Of a stretch of DNA of 64,000 nt, positions 18,268 to 60,317 are shown piece after piece. A program made the position numbers and the translations under genes. The stretch's first letter is position 1. Every line of letters begins with the position of its first letter. Location: assembly GCA_001797675.1 (NCBI GenBank), contig MGQB01000001.1, positions 321,531-385,530 of the forward strand. The letters are read 5' to 3'. The stretch is from Deltaproteobacteria bacterium RBG_13_43_22 (GTDB lineage: Bacteria; Desulfobacterota; RBG-13-43-22). The notes below the pieces were generated by a model that was not told the DNA's origin, made no database searches, and saw only the letters and a program-made list of their open reading frames with translations.

Positions 18268-18690
18268 TTAGACGATCTCTAAAAGCAATCGCCGTAAAAG
18301 GATCCGTTCTTCCAGGGTGAATCGGGAAAGCAAAATTTCATTGGCTTTTTCCCGTTCTTTAACCAGTCTTTTTCTTAAATCATTCGCTTTCTTTGAGGGG
18401 AGGAGTCGAACAATCCGTTTATCCCCCTTATCCCGCTGCTTCTTTATCCAGCCACCCTCGTCCATCCGGTCAAGGATCCCGGAAAGAGTGGCCTTATCAA
18501 TACTGAGCAGTTCACCCAGTTCAGCAGCTTTTATTTTTTCCTTTTGCCAAAGAACCTCCAACACCAAATATTGAATATTGGTCAATTTGTAGGGTTTGAG
18601 GCGGGTCTGAACAAGTCCATGGGCCTTCTGATAGGCCTTGGCCAGGAGAAAAATATAGCAATCCGTATTGATCAGTAAATTTTCAGGCAT
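18268..18690 (-). CDS. MarR family transcriptional regulator
   Basis: 140 aa winged-helix protein (LTNIQYLVLEVLWQKEKIKAAELGELLSIDKATLSGILDRMDEGGWIKKQRDKGDKRIV). Confidence 0.85.
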   Translation of the reverse strand: MPENLLINTDCYIFLLAKAYQKAHGLVQTRLKPYKLTNIQYLVLEVLWQKEKIKAAELGELLSIDKATLSGILDRMDEGGWIKKQRDKGDKRIVRLLPSKKANDLRKRLVKEREKANEILLSRFTLEERILLRRLLLEIV

Positions 18691-18715: not shown

Positions 18716-18982
18716 TATCAAGGGGTTTACTCTAAGTCAATCCCAAAATCGGCCCATCCTGCAGCCGGTTTACGATTTTCCGAAAACCTGGATGTTTTGA
18801 ACCGTTCGGTAGAGTGGATCGCCGATGACCTTGATCCCGGATTTCTTATTTTTTCATTGACTCCGGTCCCTGATCCGATTAAATTTATTTCCTTCTCAAA
18901 AGAAACGTTATCACCTATTTCAAGAGGGTTATCAAAGGATACCGTTAGACTTCAGAAGAATTTGTATTAAAGGGACGTTTAT

Positions 18983-22112: not shown

Positions 22113-22634
22113 ATGATTTTATCCGGATTGGAAATTTGTTCAAAAATCGGCAAAGAAATTATTATTGACCCCTTTGACCGGGCCAAAGTCAATCCGAACA
22201 GCTACAACCTGTCCTTACATAATGAATTGATCACCTATACCGATTTTCCTTTGGATATGAAAAGAGAGAATCCTTTTACCGAGATCACCATACCGGAAGA
22301 TGGATTAGTGTTGGTGCCTAATCGTTTATATCTGGGAAGGACCGTGGAATATACGGAAACCCACGGTTATGTCCCCATGTTGGAAGGTCGATCTTCCATT
22401 GGGCGGCTCGGTATTTTTGTGCACGTTACCGCCGGATTCGGCGATGTCGGATTTAAAGGGTATTGGACCCTGGAAATTTTTTGCGTTCAACCGGTCCGAA
22501 TCTATACGGGGGTCGAGGTCTGCCAGATTTATTACCACACCATCGAAGGGCCGTATGAACCCTATTCAAGCCGGAAGTACCAGAACAACCGGGGCATTCA
22601 ACCCAGTTTTCTGTTTAAGGATTTTAAAAAATAG
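22113..22634 (+). CDS. dcd: dCTP deaminase
   Basis: 173 aa protein with C-terminal ICQIYYHTIEG...YSSRKYQNNRGIQPS typical of Dcd. Confidence 0.9.
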   Translation: MILSGLEICSKIGKEIIIDPFDRAKVNPNSYNLSLHNELITYTDFPLDMKRENPFTEITIPEDGLVLVPNRLYLGRTVEYTETHGYVPMLEGRSSIGRLGIFVHVTAGFGDVGFKGYWTLEIFCVQPVRIYTGVEVCQIYYHTIEGPYEPYSSRKYQNNRGIQPSFLFKDFKK

Positions 22635-22661
22635 GATCAAACCGGTCAAAAGGATATTTCA

Positions 22662-22716
22662 AATGTGATTAGAATTCAATTTAAAGGCCCAAAGCTTGCT
22701 GCCCAGGAAGTTACTT
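22662..22716 (-). pseudogene. 3'-terminal remnant (last ~17 codons) of a gtrA-like gene
   Basis: Reverse strand reads LSNFLGSKLWAFKLNSNHI*. This matches the C-terminus of the intact GtrA-like gene at 25790..26263 and is part of the 22517..22716 duplicated junction. Confidence 0.5.
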
Positions 22717-23400
22717 AATAAATGCGGTCTATAGGATGCAGAGGGAGCAGTTCGTCCAAACTTTGGAAGTCTGCCTCTTCTTTTCCCCTTATCCCCTTCT
22801 ATTTGTAAAGTCCAGACCTGCAAAGTCCTATTTTTCTCCTTGACCTTGCTTTTTTCTTTCTTTATATTCTTTCCATCAAAAAGCAAATTCTATCAAATCA
22901 AATATCGGAACGTACGATTCTTCCAAAAAAATTATAGAAAAATCAGATTGTTTCACATTAATCGGAAAAGATTCCAATGCCTGACAGGAAATCCTGCTGC
23001 TAAAAGAGGAATTCCCGGTTCCGGCGCTCATCCCTATTCCTATTTTATTGCAATTATTACTTAAAGTTATGATCAAGCAGGCAATTGGCTGTCAACGTTT
23101 TTATCATTGGGTGAACCCGTTCCGCATTCCGGGTTTAAACTGAAAAAACCCTGAGATAGGAGGAGACCATATGTTCGACCTGATGTCATGGAAAAAAAGA
23201 GACCCCAGAGCCTCGCCCGTTTTCGGGGGGAACTCGACAACCGGTTCAATTAAGAGGACCGATAATCATTACAGCAAGAAGATTTATCGATTGAGCTCCG
23301 GCTTAAATCCGATTTTTACCAGACGAGAGGTATAAATCTCGACGGGAAAGAGGTGACAGCCGGCAGGTGATCATCAACCATTTTGCAAAGGAGGATTAAA

Positions 23401-25476: not shown

Positions 25477-25533
25477 GGCCCTTAGCGGCGCACACGGCAT
25501 TTGCTGGTTTTGGTTCAGAGATGACGAGTGGAA

Positions 25534-25745
25534 GTCTGCCAGATTTATTACCACACCATCGAAGGGCCGTATGAACCCTATTGAAGCTCCCTGCACCAAG
25601 GTGCAGGGAATCTTCCAGGCAAGGAAAGGGTTTATTTGTTGTAGTTCGCTCGCTAACCCACGCAGCAAGCTGCGGGGAATGCGCTCGCTATTCCTGTTCA
25701 AGCCGGAAGTACCAGAACAACCGGGGCATTCAACCCAGTCTTCTG
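25534..25745 (+). pseudogene. Duplicated 3' fragment of dcd (last ~25 codons) interrupted by a dispersed repeat element
   Basis: 25534-25582 and 25700-25745 are near-identical to dcd 22517-22612. The 115-bp element is inserted between ...GAACCCTATT and CAAGCCGG. Confidence 0.55.
25581..25700 (+). repeat. Dual-hairpin dispersed repeat element, copy A (short form, ~118 bp)
   Basis: TTGAAGCTCCCTGCACCAAGGTGCAGGG...CCCACGCAGCAAGCTGCGGGG...CCTGTTCA. Near-identical copies at 30137, 35231 and 47551. Confidence 0.7.
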
Positions 25746-25789
25746 AATAAAGATTTAAAAAATAGGGTCTGACCGGGCAAAAGGATATT

Positions 25790-26263
25790 TTAATTATGAT
25801 TAGAATTCAATTTAAAGGCCCAGAGCTTGCTGCCCAGGAAGTTGCTTAAGGTGGTTATAAAAATGGCGGCCAATTGGGCGATGATCTTGTGCCAATGCTG
25901 AAGATCGACCAGAAACCATAAGACGGCTATATTGATTCCGTAGCTGACCAGGGTAACCATCGCATATTTCAGATATTGGTCGCGGATGGCCTTGATTCCC
26001 TGCTCGTGGGTTTTAAAAGTCCAGCGCAGATTCAGGAAAAAATTGCTGGACATGGCCGTTAAAAAAGAGAAGGTGGCTGCCAGCAGATAATGAACGTTCA
26101 GCAGGTAAATGGAGCCTGAATAAACGGCCAGATTAACCAATACCCCGCTGCTGCCCACCAGGGCGAAGCGGACAAACTGATTTCCGGTGTGGCCGCTGGT
26201 AATCAGACTATTGACCATATAGGCCCAATTGAGTTTCTCGGCATATCCCTTGAAGCGACTCAA
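25790..26263 (-). CDS. GtrA-family polysaccharide-synthesis membrane protein
   Basis: 157 aa protein with 4 TM helices and a GtrA-like N-terminus (VRFALVGSSGVLVNLAVY). Confidence 0.7.
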   Translation of the reverse strand: MSRFKGYAEKLNWAYMVNSLITSGHTGNQFVRFALVGSSGVLVNLAVYSGSIYLLNVHYLLAATFSFLTAMSSNFFLNLRWTFKTHEQGIKAIRDQYLKYAMVTLVSYGINIAVLWFLVDLQHWHKIIAQLAAIFITTLSNFLGSKLWAFKLNSNHN

Positions 26264-28581: not shown

Positions 28582-28719
28582 CTTGGTTTGTCTGGCCTGT
28601 TTAGTCTGTTTAGTTTTTTGGGTCTATTTATTTTATTTCGTTTAGTGTGCGTCGTAAGGCATAAGGTATAAGAGTCATTGCACCTATTGCCCATAGTCTA
28701 TTGCCTATTGCCTGTTTTT

Positions 28720-30136: not shown

Positions 30137-30258
30137 ATTGAAGCTCCCTGCACCAAGGTGCAGGGAATCTTCCAGGCAAGGAAAGGGTTTATTTGTTGTA
30201 GTTCGCTCGCTAACCCACGCAGCAAACTGCGGGGAATGCGCTCGCTATTCCTGTTCAA
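30137..30258 (+). repeat. Dual-hairpin dispersed repeat element, copy B (short form)
   Basis: About 97% identical to copy A. Intergenic between the methyltransferase and wzt. Confidence 0.7.
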
Positions 30259-31492
30259 CTATCCAGCGATGGGGGATTCGATAGATCCCGGCGTCTTTTT
30301 TAGTCGAGCGGACGGCAAAGGACATACAACCGCTTTGATAATCGTAATTGTGGCCGTCGTGGGCATGAACCGCCACATCCAGCAAATAATTCCCTTCTAT
30401 CAAATGAACCTGCTCGAGCTTGATCTTGATTTGACCGGTTTCTTGAAAGGGAGGCAGCACCACCTCATCCAGGTCGGTGTTGGTCCCATAGCAACAGGTC
30501 CCTTTCCCGTCAAAAACACCTACGCCGAAAACGCAATCCAGAGTGGGACGATTAACTTGAAAATCCATCTCCACCAATATATCCTCTCCGTCTTGAAAGA
30601 CGTGTCTTTCCTGACCCCGGCTGTCACGGAGACGGACCCGGATAATTTCGATGTCTCCGTTACCCCACCGGTCTTTGGAAATCAATCTTTCTGTTCCGCT
30701 GGAGGCTGCTTTTGATTGTTCTTCTTTATAGCGTTCGTCATCCCTTCGGGCCACCGCTTGCCGGTAGGCGTCTATCACCTGACGGGGTTCTCCCTGGGCC
30801 TGGATACAACCCGAGTCCAGCCAGAGGGCCTGATCGCAAAACCGTTCCACGGTGGGCAGATCATGGGTCACCAGGACGATCGTCTTCCCCGACTTCTTGA
30901 AAGTCGTCATCCGGTCAATACATTTCCGGGAAAAGGATTCGTCTCCCACGGCCAGGACCTCATCGACCAGCAAAATATCCGGATCGACATTGACGGCCAC
31001 GGAAAACCCCAGGCGGACATACATGCCCGAGGAATAGGTCCGGACCGGTACATCAATAAAAGACTCCAACTCGGCAAAACGAACGATCCGGTCAAACCGT
31101 TTTTCAATTTCTTTGCGGCTCAATCCCAGAATGGTCCCGTTGATAAACACATTCTCCCGGCCGGTGAACTCCGGATGAAATCCGGCTCCTAATTCGATTA
31201 AAGAAGAAACCCGCCCGTTCATCTGAACCGTCCCGGAATCCGGTTTATAAATTCCGGTCATGACCTTGAGGAGTGTGCTTTTACCGGATCCGTTCCGGCC
31301 GATGACCCCCAGACTGATTCCCTGGGAAATTTCCAGATTCAGGTCCTGAAAAACAACCCTGGTTTCTTCTTTGGGTCGGCCCTTTCGTGAAAAGGGATTC
31401 AGGAACAGGGATTTTAAGGTAATGTAGTCGCGGCGCAAGGTGGTTTGTTTAAATCCTTTGGAGATCCCTTTTAAGATGACGGCTGGGGGCAT
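30245..31492 (-). CDS. wzt: O-polysaccharide ABC transporter ATP-binding protein Wzt with C-terminal carbohydrate-binding extension
   Basis: Walker A (GRNGSGKST), LSGG-like and Walker B motifs, plus a ~160 aa C-terminal extension as in Wzt/TagH. Confidence 0.85.
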   Translation of the reverse strand: MPPAVILKGISKGFKQTTLRRDYITLKSLFLNPFSRKGRPKEETRVVFQDLNLEISQGISLGVIGRNGSGKSTLLKVMTGIYKPDSGTVQMNGRVSSLIELGAGFHPEFTGRENVFINGTILGLSRKEIEKRFDRIVRFAELESFIDVPVRTYSSGMYVRLGFSVAVNVDPDILLVDEVLAVGDESFSRKCIDRMTTFKKSGKTIVLVTHDLPTVERFCDQALWLDSGCIQAQGEPRQVIDAYRQAVARRDDERYKEEQSKAASSGTERLISKDRWGNGDIEIIRVRLRDSRGQERHVFQDGEDILVEMDFQVNRPTLDCVFGVGVFDGKGTCCYGTNTDLDEVVLPPFQETGQIKIKLEQVHLIEGNYLLDVAVHAHDGHNYDYQSGCMSFAVRSTKKDAGIYRIPHRWIVEQE

Positions 31493-35052: not shown

Positions 35053-35230
35053 GTTTGATCCTCCCCAAAGAATTATTCTAAATTAAATTAGGAAATATAA
35101 CTCATTCTGAGGGAAATGTAAATTGTTTTCTTCAAAAACCTATCCGCTTTAAATTGAATAACTTCCCTTGCAAAGATATCTTCTTTTTTCTATAATTTAT
35201 GGTAAAAGAGCTTTATCTATCAAAAATCAA

Positions 35231-35398
35231 TTGAAGCTCCCTGCACCAAGACTTCGGCGAGCTCAGTCGAGTCGGTGCAGGGAATCTTCCAGGCAAGGAA
35301 AAGGTCTATTTATTGTATTTCGCTCGCTAACCCACGCAGCAAGACTTCGACGAGCTCAGTCGAGACGCTGCGGGGAATGCGCTCGCTACACCTGTTCA
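35231..35398 (+). repeat. Dual-hairpin dispersed repeat element, copy C (long form, ~168 bp: both hairpin loops carry the same ~21-nt extension ACTTCGRCGAGCTCAGTCGAG)
   Basis: Same ends and spacer as copies A, B and D, but each hairpin loop is extended by an almost identical 21-nt palindromic insert. Confidence 0.7.
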
Positions 35399-35419: not shown

Positions 35420-36949
35420 ATGATCGCTAAAATTTTCAGTAGTGCCATCTCAGGGATTGATGCCTATATCGTTCAGGTTGAAGTCGATATTGCCAGGGGG
35501 TTACCGGCCTTTTCCACGGTTGGATTGCCGGAAGGGGCTGTCCGGGAAAGTAAAGATCGGGTCAAATCGGCCATTAAGAATTCAGGTTTTGAATTCCCCA
35601 GCCACCGAATTACCGTTAATCTGGCTCCGGCCGATATAAAAAAAGAAGGGTCGGCCTTTGACCTTCCTATAGCCATAGGTATTCTTACGGCTGAAGATTT
35701 AATTTCTTCCACCATCGTGTCGTCATACCTTATTTTAGGGGAGCTTTCTCTGAATGGGGAAATTAAGCCGATTCGAGGCACATTGCCCACCGCTTTATCG
35801 GTTAAGGATAACGGCTTTCGTGGACTGATTGTCCCCGAGGCCAATGCTCTTGAGGCCTCCGTGGTAGAAGGGATTGAGATCATTCCGGCGCAAACGCTTG
35901 GACAGGTGACTGAATTTCTTAGAGGCCTCTCACCGATCCAACCATTAAACCAGGAACCAAAACGGCCCTTTTCTCTTCTTCAGGATTATCCTTTTGATTT
36001 CAATGAGGTGAAAGGCCAGGAACAGGTCAAACGGGCACTGGAAATTGCAGCCGCCGGAGGTCATAACATCATTATGGTCGGACCTCCCGGTTCCGGAAAA
36101 ACCATGCTGGCCCAAAGGCTGCCCTCTATTTTGCCCGACCTGACTTTCGAAGAGGCCTTGGAAACCTCGAAAATTTACAGTGTCATCGGTCTGATGCCGA
36201 GAGATCAGGCCCTGATTACTTCCCGGCCCTTTCGATCCCCTCATCATACGGTTTCCGACGCCGGTCTGATTGGAGGCGGGCAAGTCCCCCGCCCCGGTGA
36301 AGTCAGCCTGGCCCATAACGGGGTTCTGTTTTTGGATGAATTACCTGAATTCAAAAAAAATGTCTTGGAGGTTCTTCGTCAGCCCCTCGAAGACGGTCGG
36401 GTGACCATTTCCCGGGCCATCACTTCCCTGACCTATCCGGCCCGCTTTATGCTGGTGGCGGCCATGAATCCCTGCCCCTGCGGGTTTCTCTCGGATCCCC
36501 AGCGGGAATGTCATTGCACCTATCCGCAGATCCAGCGCTATAAATCAAAAATATCCGGTCCCCTGTTGGACCGTATCGATCTCCACGTAGAGGTCCCTTC
36601 GGTGAAATTCAAAGAACTGGCTGGCCAGTCCGATGGAGAATCCTCGAACACCATCCGGGAACGGGTCAAAGCCGCCCGGGAAAGGCAAAAAACCCGCTTT
36701 CACAGCAAAACCCTTTTTTGTAACGCCCAGATGGGACCGAGGCTGATCAAAAAATATTGCACCCTGTCTCCGGACTCCCAAAACCTTCTGGAACAGGCCA
36801 TGGAATATCTGGGATTAAGTGCCCGGGCCTATCATCGCATATTAAAGATCTCCCGAACCATTGCGGATTTGGAGAATAGCGAGGATATTGCTCCTCATCA
36901 TATCTCGGAAGCCATCCAATACCGGAATTTGGACCGCCGTCTCCTTTAA
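35420..36949 (+). CDS. comM: YifB/ComM family Mg-chelatase-like AAA+ ATPase
   Basis: 509 aa protein with Lon-like N-terminus, Walker A (GPPGSGKTM) and a C-terminal Mg-chelatase ChlI-like domain. Confidence 0.85.
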
Positions 36950-37057
36950 TCAATGCCTCCACAACCTCCTAAATACCGGTCTCATCCCAAACCAAAAAAA
37001 TCGATAAACTATTTGGTCTGGTTTTTCGTCTTCCTGATGGCCTTTATGTTGATCACC
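36936..37057 (+). repeat. Direct repeat DR1: duplicated copy of the comM 3' end, mrcA promoter/RBS and mrcA codons 1-36
   Basis: About 92% identical over ~122 bp to 38651..38771, including the mrcA ATG context (ATGCCTCCACAA...CTATTTGGTCTGGTTTTTCGTCTT). Flanks the macB-like insertion. Confidence 0.7.
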
Positions 37058-37139
37058 ACCAATACCCCCCCGATAATCCATTTCAAGGATGGGGTGGTTA
37101 TGGATCCGGCCCGAGGGACCGGATAATAGGGTAAGTCCT

Positions 37140-38366
37140 ATGAAACCCATTTCAAGTCTCAAGGTGGCCCTTCGTGCCTTGCGGATCAACAAGATGCGCT
37201 CTTTTTTGACCATGCTGGGCATTATCATCGGTGTCGGAGCGGTCATTGTCATGGTGGCCTTAGGTTCCGGAGCCAGGGAAATGATCGCCCAGGTGATCGC
37301 CAATATGGGGTCGAATCTGCTTATTGTGGTTCCCGGTGCGACTACGGCCGGCGGGGCCCGTATGGGAGAAGGCAGCGCCCCCACTCTGACTTCCGATGAC
37401 GCCAAAGCCATCAAGGAGGAATGCCCGGCCGTCAAGACCGTAGCCGCCTTTTGGGGCGGGGTTACCCAAGTGGTTTATGGCAATCAAAATTGGAATACCA
37501 GTGTTTCCGGGATGACACCGTCTCATTTTGAAATCCGGGATTGGCCCATTGCCTCCGGCCGGAATTTTTCCGACCAGGAAGTCTACGGTGCGGTAAAAGT
37601 AGCCATAATCGGGAAATCAGTGGTTGAAAACCTCTTCGGATCGGAGGACCCGCTCGGGCAGATCATCCGGATTAAAAAAATACCTTTTACCGTTATCGGT
37701 GTCCTTTCTTCAAAAGGACAAACCCCGATGGGAACAGACCAGGACGATGTCGTTTATATCCCCTTGACCACCTCGCAAAAAAGAATCTTCGGAAGCCAGC
37801 TTCCCAACCGGGTTCGGCTGATCATGGTTCAGGCTAAAGATATCAGCCTGATGAATGATGCCGAAAACCAGGTCAACGACCTTTTAACGGAGAGACATCA
37901 TGTTCAGAATGGACAACTGGTTGATTTCACCATCCGGAACCTGACCGAACTCCTGGCCACGGCTGAAAAATCAGCCGGGGTTATGTCCCTTCTGCTGGGT
38001 TCTATCGCCCTGGTTTCCCTGCTGGTGGGAGGCATCGGGATTATGAATATCATGCTGGTTTCGGTTACGGAGCGCACCCGTGAAATCGGCATCCGCATGG
38101 CCGTGGGCGCCCGTGGAATCGATATCCTCCTTCAATTTCTGACCGAATCGGTGGTCATAAGCCTGGTGGGAGGACTGATCGGGATCGCCTTAGGGGCCCT
38201 GGGTGCCCAGGTGATCTCAAAATTCACCGGATGGAACGTCTTTATTTCAGTTTGGGCCCTGTTGATCTCTTTTTCTTTTGCCGCCGCCGTGGGTATCTTT
38301 TTCGGCTATTACCCGGCCCTCAAGGCCTCCCGCCTGAATCCGATCGATGCCTTGAGGTATGAATAG
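37140..38366 (+). CDS. MacB-like ABC transporter permease (MacB periplasmic domain plus FtsX), no adjacent ATPase
   Basis: 409 aa from the ATG at 37140 (MKPISSLKVALRALRINKMRSFLTMLGIIIGV). Four TM helices and a C-terminal FtsX motif region. The ORF track's 37089 start is an upstream extension. Confidence 0.75.
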   Translation: MKPISSLKVALRALRINKMRSFLTMLGIIIGVGAVIVMVALGSGAREMIAQVIANMGSNLLIVVPGATTAGGARMGEGSAPTLTSDDAKAIKEECPAVKTVAAFWGGVTQVVYGNQNWNTSVSGMTPSHFEIRDWPIASGRNFSDQEVYGAVKVAIIGKSVVENLFGSEDPLGQIIRIKKIPFTVIGVLSSKGQTPMGTDQDDVVYIPLTTSQKRIFGSQLPNRVRLIMVQAKDISLMNDAENQVNDLLTERHHVQNGQLVDFTIRNLTELLATAEKSAGVMSLLLGSIALVSLLVGGIGIMNIMLVSVTERTREIGIRMAVGARGIDILLQFLTESVVISLVGGLIGIALGALGAQVISKFTGWNVFISVWALLISFSFAAAVGIFFGYYPALKASRLNPIDALRYE

Positions 38367-38650
38367 GATCGACAGGACACCGAAGTCCAGATCTTTCTTT
38401 TCTCCCCGTTGTTCAATGAAAAGTAAAGCCTCATCCCTTTTCTGACCACTTAGCTTATCTCCATCCGCCGCACCGGCTGCGTCTGACAGCACCCTCCCGC
38501 AGTGGCTCTTTTATGCCCCTCCTTTAGAGTCGTTCCCAAAATTCGGCGGACCCTGATTATTCTTTCTCCAAGGCCTTCGTTTGTGGTATCATTCGGCTCA
38601 TATTCAAGAAACTCGATGACCTTGGGAATATAATACTGAAATTTAGATCG

Positions 38651-38771
38651 GCGTCTACTTTAATCAATGCCTCCACAAACCTCTAAATACCGGTCTCATC
38701 CCAAACCAAAAAAATCGATAAACTATTTGGTCTGGTTTTTCGTCTTTCTGATGGCTTTTATGCTGTTCACC
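38651..38771 (+). repeat. Direct repeat DR2 (native mrcA promoter and 5' end)
   Basis: Partner of DR1. Here it continues into the intact mrcA ORF. Confidence 0.7.
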
Positions 38772-47449: not shown

Positions 47450-47550
47450 GATCCCCTCACACGATTCTATAGGTTGGATTCAAAGATCCTTTTTAAACCC
47501 TCATGCCCGCCTGGACGGGTGCTACAAAACACAATGATTAAATTTTAGGA

Positions 47551-47670
47551 TTGAAGCTCCCTGCACCAAGGTGCAGGGAATCTTCCAGGCAAGGAAAGGG
47601 GTTATTTGTTGTAGTTCGCTCGCTAACCCACGCAGCAAGCTGCGGGGAATGCGCTCGCTATTCCTGTTCA
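47551..47670 (+). repeat. Dual-hairpin dispersed repeat element, copy D (short form)
   Basis: About 98% identical to copy A. Intergenic between hom and the aminotransferase. Confidence 0.7.
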
Positions 47671-47777
47671 AGGGACCACGGGGTCAAGGACCGCGGGGCG
47701 GAGTGAAAGACATGGAAGTTAAAACCCTCGAACCCTTGAATCCTGGAACCCTTGAACCCTATTTTGAATTTTAGCTA

Positions 47778-51308: not shown

Positions 51309-51401
51309 TGGCGGAGAGAGAGGGATTCGAACCCTCGGTAGAGGTTTCCCCCTACACTCGCTTAGCAGGCGAGCACCTTAAGCCTACTCGGTCATCTCTC
51401 C
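51309..51401 (-). tRNA. tRNA-Ser (anticodon GCU)
   Basis: Reverse-complement folds as GGAGAGA acceptor stem, anticodon loop CUGCUAA, long variable arm, T-loop GGTTCGAAT and a genomically encoded CCA. Confidence 0.85.
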
Positions 51402-51517: not shown

Positions 51518-51609
51518 TGGCGGAGGGAGAGGGATTCGAACCCCCGTTCCCCGGAAGGAAAGCGGTTTTCAAGACCGCCGCCTTAAACCACTCGGCCATC
51601 CCTCCCTCC
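51518..51609 (-). tRNA. tRNA-Ser (anticodon UGA)
   Basis: Reverse-complement folds as GGAGGGA acceptor stem, anticodon loop CUUGAAA, long variable arm, T-loop GGTTCGAAT and an encoded CCA. Confidence 0.85.
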
Positions 51610-60199: not shown

Positions 60200-60317
60200 T
60201 TATACAATAAATTTAGGGTTCAAAGATTCCGGGATTCAAGGGTTCAAGTTTTTATTCAATTGGTTTTTGATTTATCACTTGAATCCTTGAACCCTTGGCT
60301 CCTTGAATCCTTTTTAA

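Follow-up and report, generated by a model that had tools for sequence, protein, structure and literature searches.

A 64,000-nt window of contig MGQB01000001.1 of Deltaproteobacteria bacterium RBG_13_43_22 (positions 321,531 to 385,530 of the forward strand) contained four copies, A to D, of a short repeat with two hairpins, referred to here as the host repeat. One of them, copy C (35230-35398, 169 nt), lay immediately upstream of the comM gene. Sequence comparisons indicated that copy C is very probably a composite, namely an old mobile two-hairpin repeat in the comM leader that was invaded twice by a separate 24-nt element, the 24-nt unit. The host repeat would have landed between a comM promoter-like site and the comM start codon; later, one copy of the unit would have entered the CAAG tetraloop of each hairpin, directly beside a G and without target duplication.

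Alignment of the four copies, all on the plus strand, showed that copies A (25580-25702), B (30137-30259) and D (47550-47672) were short forms of 123 nt each, 98-99% alike and with mutual differences of about 1%. Copy C consisted of the same two-hairpin repeat with about seven substitutions and an additional 24 nt in each hairpin loop; its core occupied positions 35233-35394, with TT on either side. In the predicted folds of hairpin 1, the 5' arm CCCTGCAC with the original tetraloop CAAG (35239-35250), whose final G was the insertion point, was followed by unit copy 1, ACTTCGGCGAGCTCAGTCGAGTCG (35251-35274, the G7/T22 variant), and by the 3' arm GTGCAGGG (35275-35282). In hairpin 2, the 5' arm CCCACGCAG with its CAAG (35331-35343) was followed by unit copy 2, ACTTCGACGAGCTCAGTCGAGACG (35344-35367, the A7/A22 variant), and by the 3' arm CTGCGGGG (35368-35375). 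Both unit copies were absent from copies A, B and D. The position of the insert was ambiguous by one G. The two inserts were identical at 22 of 24 positions, and the differences were confined to unit positions 7 and 22; the A7/A22 pair of unit copy 2 was the sole A-A combination among the 145 unit copies compared.

The first-pass annotation had described an almost identical 21-nt extension in both hairpins of copy C. The near-identity was real, being seen in the alignment of the four copies and in two assemblies, but the length of the insert was 24 nt. Its statement that the inserts extend the stems was borne out by the predicted folds, in which the stems of both hairpins were longer with each insert. 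The spacer between the hairpins was nearly unchanged, as had been claimed; it differed from copies A, B and D at four positions, and three more differences lay beyond it at the 3' end. Copy C did adjoin the comM start, with a gap to the ATG (35420) of 21 nt instead of 22 bp. A CRISPR-like reading of the two hairpins was rejected, because the "spacer" sequence was kept between copies. No further match to the 22-mer was found in the window at up to three mismatches (0 expected by chance), and a suspected relic unit copy at 28621-28640 was a chance match.

Filled and empty sites differed by exactly 24 nt in six comparisons. These were the two hairpins of copy C against copies A, B and D, three unrelated families of host repeats that were each compared on a single contig (L086, L116 and L073), and a CopA-like gene, which at the DNA level was empty in locus L149 (GGAGAC/TGGGAC) and filled in locus L056 (GGAGAC-24 nt-TGGGAC). 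No target duplication of 2 bp or more was seen at unit sites in the filled and empty comparisons, a single G being ambiguous. About 30% of the unit copies lay within long open reading frames (ORFs), in five of the six frames, so that all five stop-free frames were used; the unit was on the same strand as its host ORF in 21 cases and on the opposite strand in 22. Insertions in the stop-containing frame were considered as a sign of RNA-level removal; for the candidates, open frames that overlap in DNA of high GC content were the explanation.

In the CopA-like P-type ATPase the unit added eight residues, GSTELAEV, in frame. This insert was missing from 26 of the 30 closest homologues; among the same 30, protein P0001 had GSTELAEV together with a further insert nested in it, and three others had different short inserts at that place. 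The CopA structures in the PDB were also without the 8-aa insert. A GH32 enzyme (locus L009) carried the same eight residues, and all 24 of its aligned homologues were without them. A third protein with the 8-aa insert was, by eye, probably a phage terminase. Within the enzymes the inserts were at surface-loop positions. The names of the closest homologues suggest that the hosts of the CopA-like and GH32 loci are Chloroflexota-like and Planctomycetota-like.

The 24-nt unit had the sequence ACTTCG-N7-CGAGCTCAGTCGAG-N22-CG. Metagenomes and viral contigs were scanned with its exact 21-mer core, ACTTCGNCGAGCTCAGTCGAG, and the unit was found in at least 120 metagenome stretches and 14 viral-contig loci; exact matching to the 21-mer biases the apparent invariance of the unit and hides diverged relatives. 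BLAST analysis with a 25-mer revealed four Picosynechococcus plasmids, with an orthologous site in the two that were inspected: the exact 25-mer was at positions 1501-1525 of both pAQ5 and unnamed5, in an intergenic or ORF-end site, and the two unit copies differed at unit position 22 only (T vs C). Among the loci collected the unit had 140 distinct flanking contexts, and the GC content of the loci ranged from 40 to 73%. Thermodesulfobacteriota-, Chloroflexota- and Planctomycetota-like contigs were present among the matches listed, the host taxonomy of most loci being inferred from few proteins. The unit density was two copies in the 64-kb window and five in about 4 kb at another locus (L123); related species had 0 copies in 72 kb. 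BLAST searches of cultured phages and 5,426 E. coli genomes gave no unit copy, and the Nostoc punctiforme plasmid pNPUN01, within the plasmid collection searched, gave none. Decayed unit copies were rare, with one or two among 155 matches (about 0.9 Mb of locus sequence). At the gathering threshold, Rfam searches of the window and of ten unit loci matched only two tRNAs of the window and neither the element nor the loci; at a permissive threshold on the element, only one chance snoRNA match was obtained besides the tRNAs. A literature search by the exact unit sequence and by the encoded peptides returned nothing describing the 24-nt unit, and it appears to be undescribed in the literature searched.

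The two variable positions of the unit covaried. The N7/N22 pairs were G-C in 90 copies, G-T in 29, A-T in 18 and T-A in 2, with non-pairs in 6, and thus Watson-Crick or G-T pairs in 139 of the 145 copies (Fisher p = 5e-7 for the association of A7 with T22). A helix C5-G24...G11-C18 with tandem G-A pairs would accommodate this covariation. The alternative, in which the ends ACT-T-CG and CG-AGT pair with each other, is favoured by energy folding and by a related 27-nt unit; these ends can pair, and the 27-nt unit covaries there.

Analysis of the insertion sites showed a simple target. A G preceded the unit in 117 of the 120 copies listed, and the junction G was present at every empty site examined. 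The junction adjoined an uninterrupted stem of 8 bp or more at 10% of the sites and in 1.1% of the G-matched controls; with the minimum stem set at 6 bp the values were 21% and 9%, and for a folding-based hairpin measure 72% and 47% (p = 1e-7). At clear stems the commonest geometry left four nucleotides unpaired 5' of the junction and none 3' of it; 20 junctions were located on the loop's 3' side and six on its 5' side. The unit was found on either strand and in both orientations; seen on the strand reading ACTTCGG, its preferred place is after a tetraloop with a final G and before the 3' arm. Such coupling of orientation to the side of the dyad would be expected of a folded single-strand target.

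The unit was also nested in itself, forward and reversed, at GAG^CTC and CTCAG^T. In a contig of ERZ936117 (L148, 2060-2230) the related 27-nt unit CCTTCGTCCCGCGCCTCAGGCCGAGGG lay within the 24-mer, at the CopA-like site that was singly filled in L056 and empty in L149. A related 30-nt unit, TCTTCGAGCCTGAGCCTCAGAGCCGAAGGC, was nested within the 24-mer in two further loci (L053 and L060). The nested mini-units shared the layout of the 24-mer, xCTTCG...CTCAG...CGAGx, and common host repeats of the type CCCTTCGACAAG^CTCAGGGC shared the core CTTCGRCRAGCTCAG; the common layout and the shared core suggest a wider superfamily.

The host repeat itself showed signs of recent movement. Comparison of the window with a contig from another sample (L145) showed flanks that were 100% identical and a 117-nt host-repeat insert in L145, a fifth, plus-oriented short copy. 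The site was empty in the window (18907-18930, target CCTA-TTT-CAAG at 18917-18920 of the plus strand) and in contig L144, and filled in L145 (minus strand, about 18277-18400), with TTT at both edges of the insert. From this presence-absence polymorphism with identical flanks it was concluded that the host repeat is currently mobile in this population. A second pair was found inside the window, where a segment of about 207 nt (22512-22718), consisting of the 3' end of a 173-aa ORF and the sequence downstream, was duplicated 3 kb away (25528-25849) with an identity of 91-95%. Copy A interrupted the second segment copy with an insert of 116 nt, and the other (22500-22720) was empty, with the site CCTA-TT-CAAG at 22560-22580. 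The two filled and empty pairs therefore defined a host-repeat core of about 114 nt (GAAGCTCCC...TTCCTG).

Each end of the host repeat had one hairpin close to it, and terminal inverted repeats were lacking. A T-run of 2-3 nt, equal in length to that of the target, stood on both sides of the insert and was either duplicated or ambiguous. All five copies were on the plus strand, the GC skew of which was negative throughout the window. Short copies were also present in two metagenome-assembled genomes (MAGs) named "uncultured delta proteobacterium", and diverged relatives were present in other metagenome contigs; the other nine copies of this lineage and the related MAGs were all short. A protein-coding reading of the host repeat, which is open in one frame here, was rejected by eye on stops in the copies of the related MAGs. 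The host repeat is a recently mobile non-autonomous element that inserts at A-TT(T)-CAAG-like sites. Copy C was taken as the oldest copy of the window because it was the most diverged (about seven positions, against about 1% among copies A, B and D), and greater age would be the simplest explanation of the filling of both its hairpins. The 3' end of copy B (30245-30259) provided the final codons and the TAG stop of a minus-strand gene for a wzt-like ABC ATPase, the protein being 415 aa here and 412-414 aa in relatives. Short arrays of an 8-nt unit (AACCCTTG / AATCCTTG and complement) were located at 47722-47761, 60214-60253 and 60274-60312, in two intergenic regions, one of them 50 nt downstream of copy D.

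The gene that follows copy C, comM/yifB (35420-36949, plus strand), encodes a Mg-chelatase-like AAA ATPase according to its Pfam domains and the names of its homologues. By its ComM homologues the organism belongs to the Thermodesulfobacteriota. A consensus scan located the promoter-like motif TTGCAA-17-TATAAT upstream of copy C (35168-35196, plus strand). In four orthologous rpoZ-comM spacers (L150-L153; ComM 85-93% identical) the repeat was absent and the motif was kept, and five related lineages shared the motif with its flanks (CTTCCCTTGCAAA...TTTTCTATAATTTA) ahead of comM. The motif is likely the comM promoter. Because the orthologous spacers keep it without the repeat, copy C is a lineage-specific insertion between the promoter-like site and the start codon, and it probably forms part of the comM leader transcript.

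Downstream of this region, a 140-nt direct repeat with 91% identity (36918-37057 and 38632-38771) flanked a MacB/FtsX-like gene (37089-38366); the repeat spanned the comM end or spacer and the first 105 nt or so of a PBP gene. In three related species the PBP gene directly followed comM, and the FtsX gene therefore looks like an insertion that duplicated the 5' region of the PBP gene.

The occupancy of the two hairpins was compared in homologous elements. The two extensions did not always occur together, since homologous two-hairpin elements of other organisms carried the unit in one hairpin only: in hairpin 2, reversed, in L045; in hairpin 2, forward, in L095; and in hairpin 2, reversed, in L017, where the loop of hairpin 1 held a different small hairpin insert, TCCCAATAAATCGGGA (about 1315-1345). 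The unit was also in single hairpins in L073, L122 and L094, that of L073 being one hairpin of a tandem pair. These single-hairpin occurrences are not random indels. The first-pass annotation had read the matched change as a sign of common origin, and this held, both extensions being the same 24-nt unit. The three explanations that it had offered did not hold in the form given. Copying of the hairpins from a common template did not agree with an insert that is a foreign unit of about 140 unrelated contexts; loop deletion in long and short subfamilies did not agree with the shortness of all other copies of this genome and of related MAGs, nor with the same 24-nt difference in unrelated repeats and in a conserved gene, a second gene having the corresponding 8-aa insert; and selection on structure was not needed, the unit being itself a hairpin that extends any stem it enters.

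The simplest account of the two units in copy C is that of two insertion events, the copy being old and its hairpins a favoured target. The main competitor is a single invasion from outside, followed by copying in cis to the second hairpin through template switching, gene conversion or local hopping. In an unbiased sample of ten elements with 20 hairpins (copies A-D, L003-L007 and L145), two hairpins were filled, both in copy C, and the chance of both filled hairpins falling in one element is 10/190 = 0.05; on this account the two insertions may not be independent. Local copying would also suit the placing of the only two unit copies of the 64 kb, which are 93 nt apart, in the same orientation and at the same loop position, as well as the likeness of the two hairpins (both ...GCA-C/G-CAAG/...TGC-A/G-GGGAAT) and the case of locus L036, in which each arm of an inverted host repeat holds one of two units, 80 nt from the other. 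Set against this, the units of copy C differ at positions 7 and 22 and nowhere else, and these are the sole family-variable positions; the variants G7/T22 and A7/T22 are each common as a source, two random mutations after copying would strike just those sites with a probability of about 0.4%, and conversion would have no more than 4 nt of flanking homology to use, on the left. Local copying was judged unlikely.

A role for the host was given a smaller share. The 24-mer could be a functional module, for example a hairpin bound by a protein or an RNase, or an element that stabilises DNA or RNA structure, that is kept for the host and spread by recruitment. The near-invariance of 22 of its 24 positions and the scarcity of decayed copies speak for such a module, as do the G-T pairs in the N7:N22 covariation, which pair on one strand only, and the probable transcription of copy C in the comM leader. 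The unit nevertheless occurred in both orientations relative to genes and in all stop-free frames, nested in itself and at surface-loop positions inside enzymes, and it matched no Rfam family; mobility is compatible with a module of this kind, which we regard as quite improbable. Far less credit was given to long and short subfamilies, or to hairpins that co-evolve because one protein reads them, the short forms being loop deletions or the long form a descendant of another master element. This would account for the matched change in both hairpins of one copy, and in IS200/IS605 one transposase does read both end hairpins; yet the same 24-mer stands in so many unrelated contexts, coding sequence included, homologous elements are filled in one hairpin in either orientation, and nine of nine other copies from the lineage and the related MAGs are short, and the explanation is very improbable. 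Hairpins are hard to sequence, and an assembly or sequencing artefact (adaptor sequence or chimeric hairpin read-through) was also considered. Copy C in its long form was base-for-base the same in an ENA contig and a JGI contig, and its inserts are therefore not an assembly artefact; in addition, cultured Picosynechococcus strains had the unit in finished plasmids, where its site was orthologous, its variants covary, and reading frames stay open in real genes. The probability left to an artefact is close to nil.

Two invasions by a mobile unit remained the preferred explanation, and several results besides the clustering in copy C weigh against it. All-against-all comparison of 2607 ORFs from 134 loci revealed no protein family that recurs beside the unit; the commonest neighbour families (kinases, dehydrogenases and ABC transporters) occurred in at most six loci each. 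Roughly 85 kb around the window contained no transposase or Y1/HUH gene. The orientation of the unit was not significantly related to the local GC skew in a weak test; an IS608-like lagging-strand mechanism would predict such a link. A clean stem stood beside the junction in only about a fifth to a third of the sites, and some sites in coding sequence, such as that of L056, were not hairpins. Simple selfish spread does not account for the near-invariance of the 22 positions from phylum to phylum.

As to how such a unit would move, it encodes nothing and must therefore move in trans. On the strand reading ACTTCGG the unit prefers the 3' edge of hairpin loops, and because it folds on itself the stem of its host is lengthened. 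HUH/Y1 transposases and RAYTs are the known hairpin-recognising DNA enzymes. The target might be a folded single strand, and the cutting and joining of the unit might be the work of an enzyme that recognises hairpins in single-strand DNA, for instance a transposase of the HUH/Y1 type; we put this forward tentatively, as a rather doubtful proposal. A route through an RNA target is unlikely, because there was no orientation bias relative to coding strands. A search for split unit halves flanking a gene, as in an autonomous parent, found only nested small units, and no parent insertion sequence (IS) of the unit was found among the loci collected. It is quite possible, although somewhat short of probable, that the 24-mer and its 27-30-nt relatives represent an undescribed cross-phylum class of minimal mobile DNA that seeks the 3' edges of single-stranded loops and is moved by a horizontally spreading trans-acting activity, possibly carried by phages.

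The closest precedent of the 24-nt unit is the small dispersed repeats (SDRs) of Nostoc. SDR1-8 of Nostoc punctiforme and relatives, which Elhai et al. reportedly described in 2008 (Genome Res), are said to be 21-27 nt long, self-folding, dispersed and mobile; their mobility was reportedly inferred from filled and empty sites, with no encoded function and an unknown mobilising activity. The 24-nt unit, set beside SDR1-8 by description, resembled them in size class, self-folding, dispersal over many contexts, mobility seen in filled and empty sites, nesting in repeats or palindromes, and lack of coding. SDR5 occurs in the HIP1 palindrome, and SDR-like repeats were not found outside Nostocaceae (PMC5861425). 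In contrast, the 24-nt unit was far more widely spread, in contigs resembling several phyla, in Picosynechococcus plasmids and in viral contigs.

Insertion into proteins gives the unit a likeness to the Rickettsia palindromic elements, with eight residues added in frame to the CopA-like ATPase, the GH32 enzyme and the probable terminase. Those elements, attributed to Ogata et al. 2000, are reportedly about 100-150 bp long and confined to Rickettsia; unlike them, the unit is 24 nt long, cross-phylum and mostly in the hairpin loops of intergenic repeats. IS1397 and ISKpn1 are said, in work credited to Tobes and Pareja (2006), to target the loop or centre of repeated extragenic palindromes (REPs). 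REP-targeting IS are about 1.4 kb long, with transposase genes, terminal inverted repeats and target duplications of 3-4 bp. The unit shared with IS1397 and ISKpn1 the hairpin loop or centre as target and the nesting of repeat in repeat; it differed from them in being 24 nt long and non-coding and in making no duplication. Compared with the Rickettsia palindromic elements and the REP-targeting IS, it is 5 to 50 times smaller.

REP/REPIN-RAYT systems and palindrome-associated elements derived from IS200/IS605 have also been described (PMC3116915; PMC6006769). The host repeat was like the REP/RAYT and IS200/IS605-type elements in its hairpins near the ends, its lack of terminal inverted repeats and its one-strand orientation, and unlike IS200/IS605 in the TT or TTT on both sides, which looks like a duplication of 2-3 nt. 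The 24-nt unit was like elements of the REP and IS200/IS605 type in being a single short hairpin with a short tag, on either strand and mostly on the 3' side of the host loop. It was unlike them in having no skew-linked orientation bias and no Y1/HUH gene nearby, and it was without the GTAG/CGTC tags given for REP superfamilies (PMC3733652). The absence of a target-site duplication of 2 bp or more also set it apart from a miniature inverted-repeat transposable element.

How DNA units too small for conventional transposon ends move has been an unanswered question since SDRs were described in one cyanobacterial family. The 24-nt unit is defined by its sequence and easily searched, and it spans several phyla, viral contigs and plasmids of cultured Picosynechococcus. 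Picosynechococcus PCC 7002 is genetically tractable. The clean filled and empty pairs, the simple target rule and the covarying pair make the mechanism of the unit testable, with Picosynechococcus as a possible experimental system. The unit accounts for "long" and "short" variants of repeats, adds 8-residue inserts to enzymes and can alter mRNA leaders, here that of comM. It should be treated by annotators and repeat classifiers as a nested element and not as a subfamily marker. If the cross-phylum class of minimal mobile DNA were true, the unit would be among the smallest transposable units known, and in environmental bacteria at large it would remodel hairpins of the REP-like kind as well as the leaders of mRNAs and the loops of proteins.

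The two tRNA genes of the window (Rfam RF00005) were on the minus strand at 51312-51401 and 51521-51605, 120 nt apart. They were 85-90 nt long, a length that suggests types with a long variable arm.

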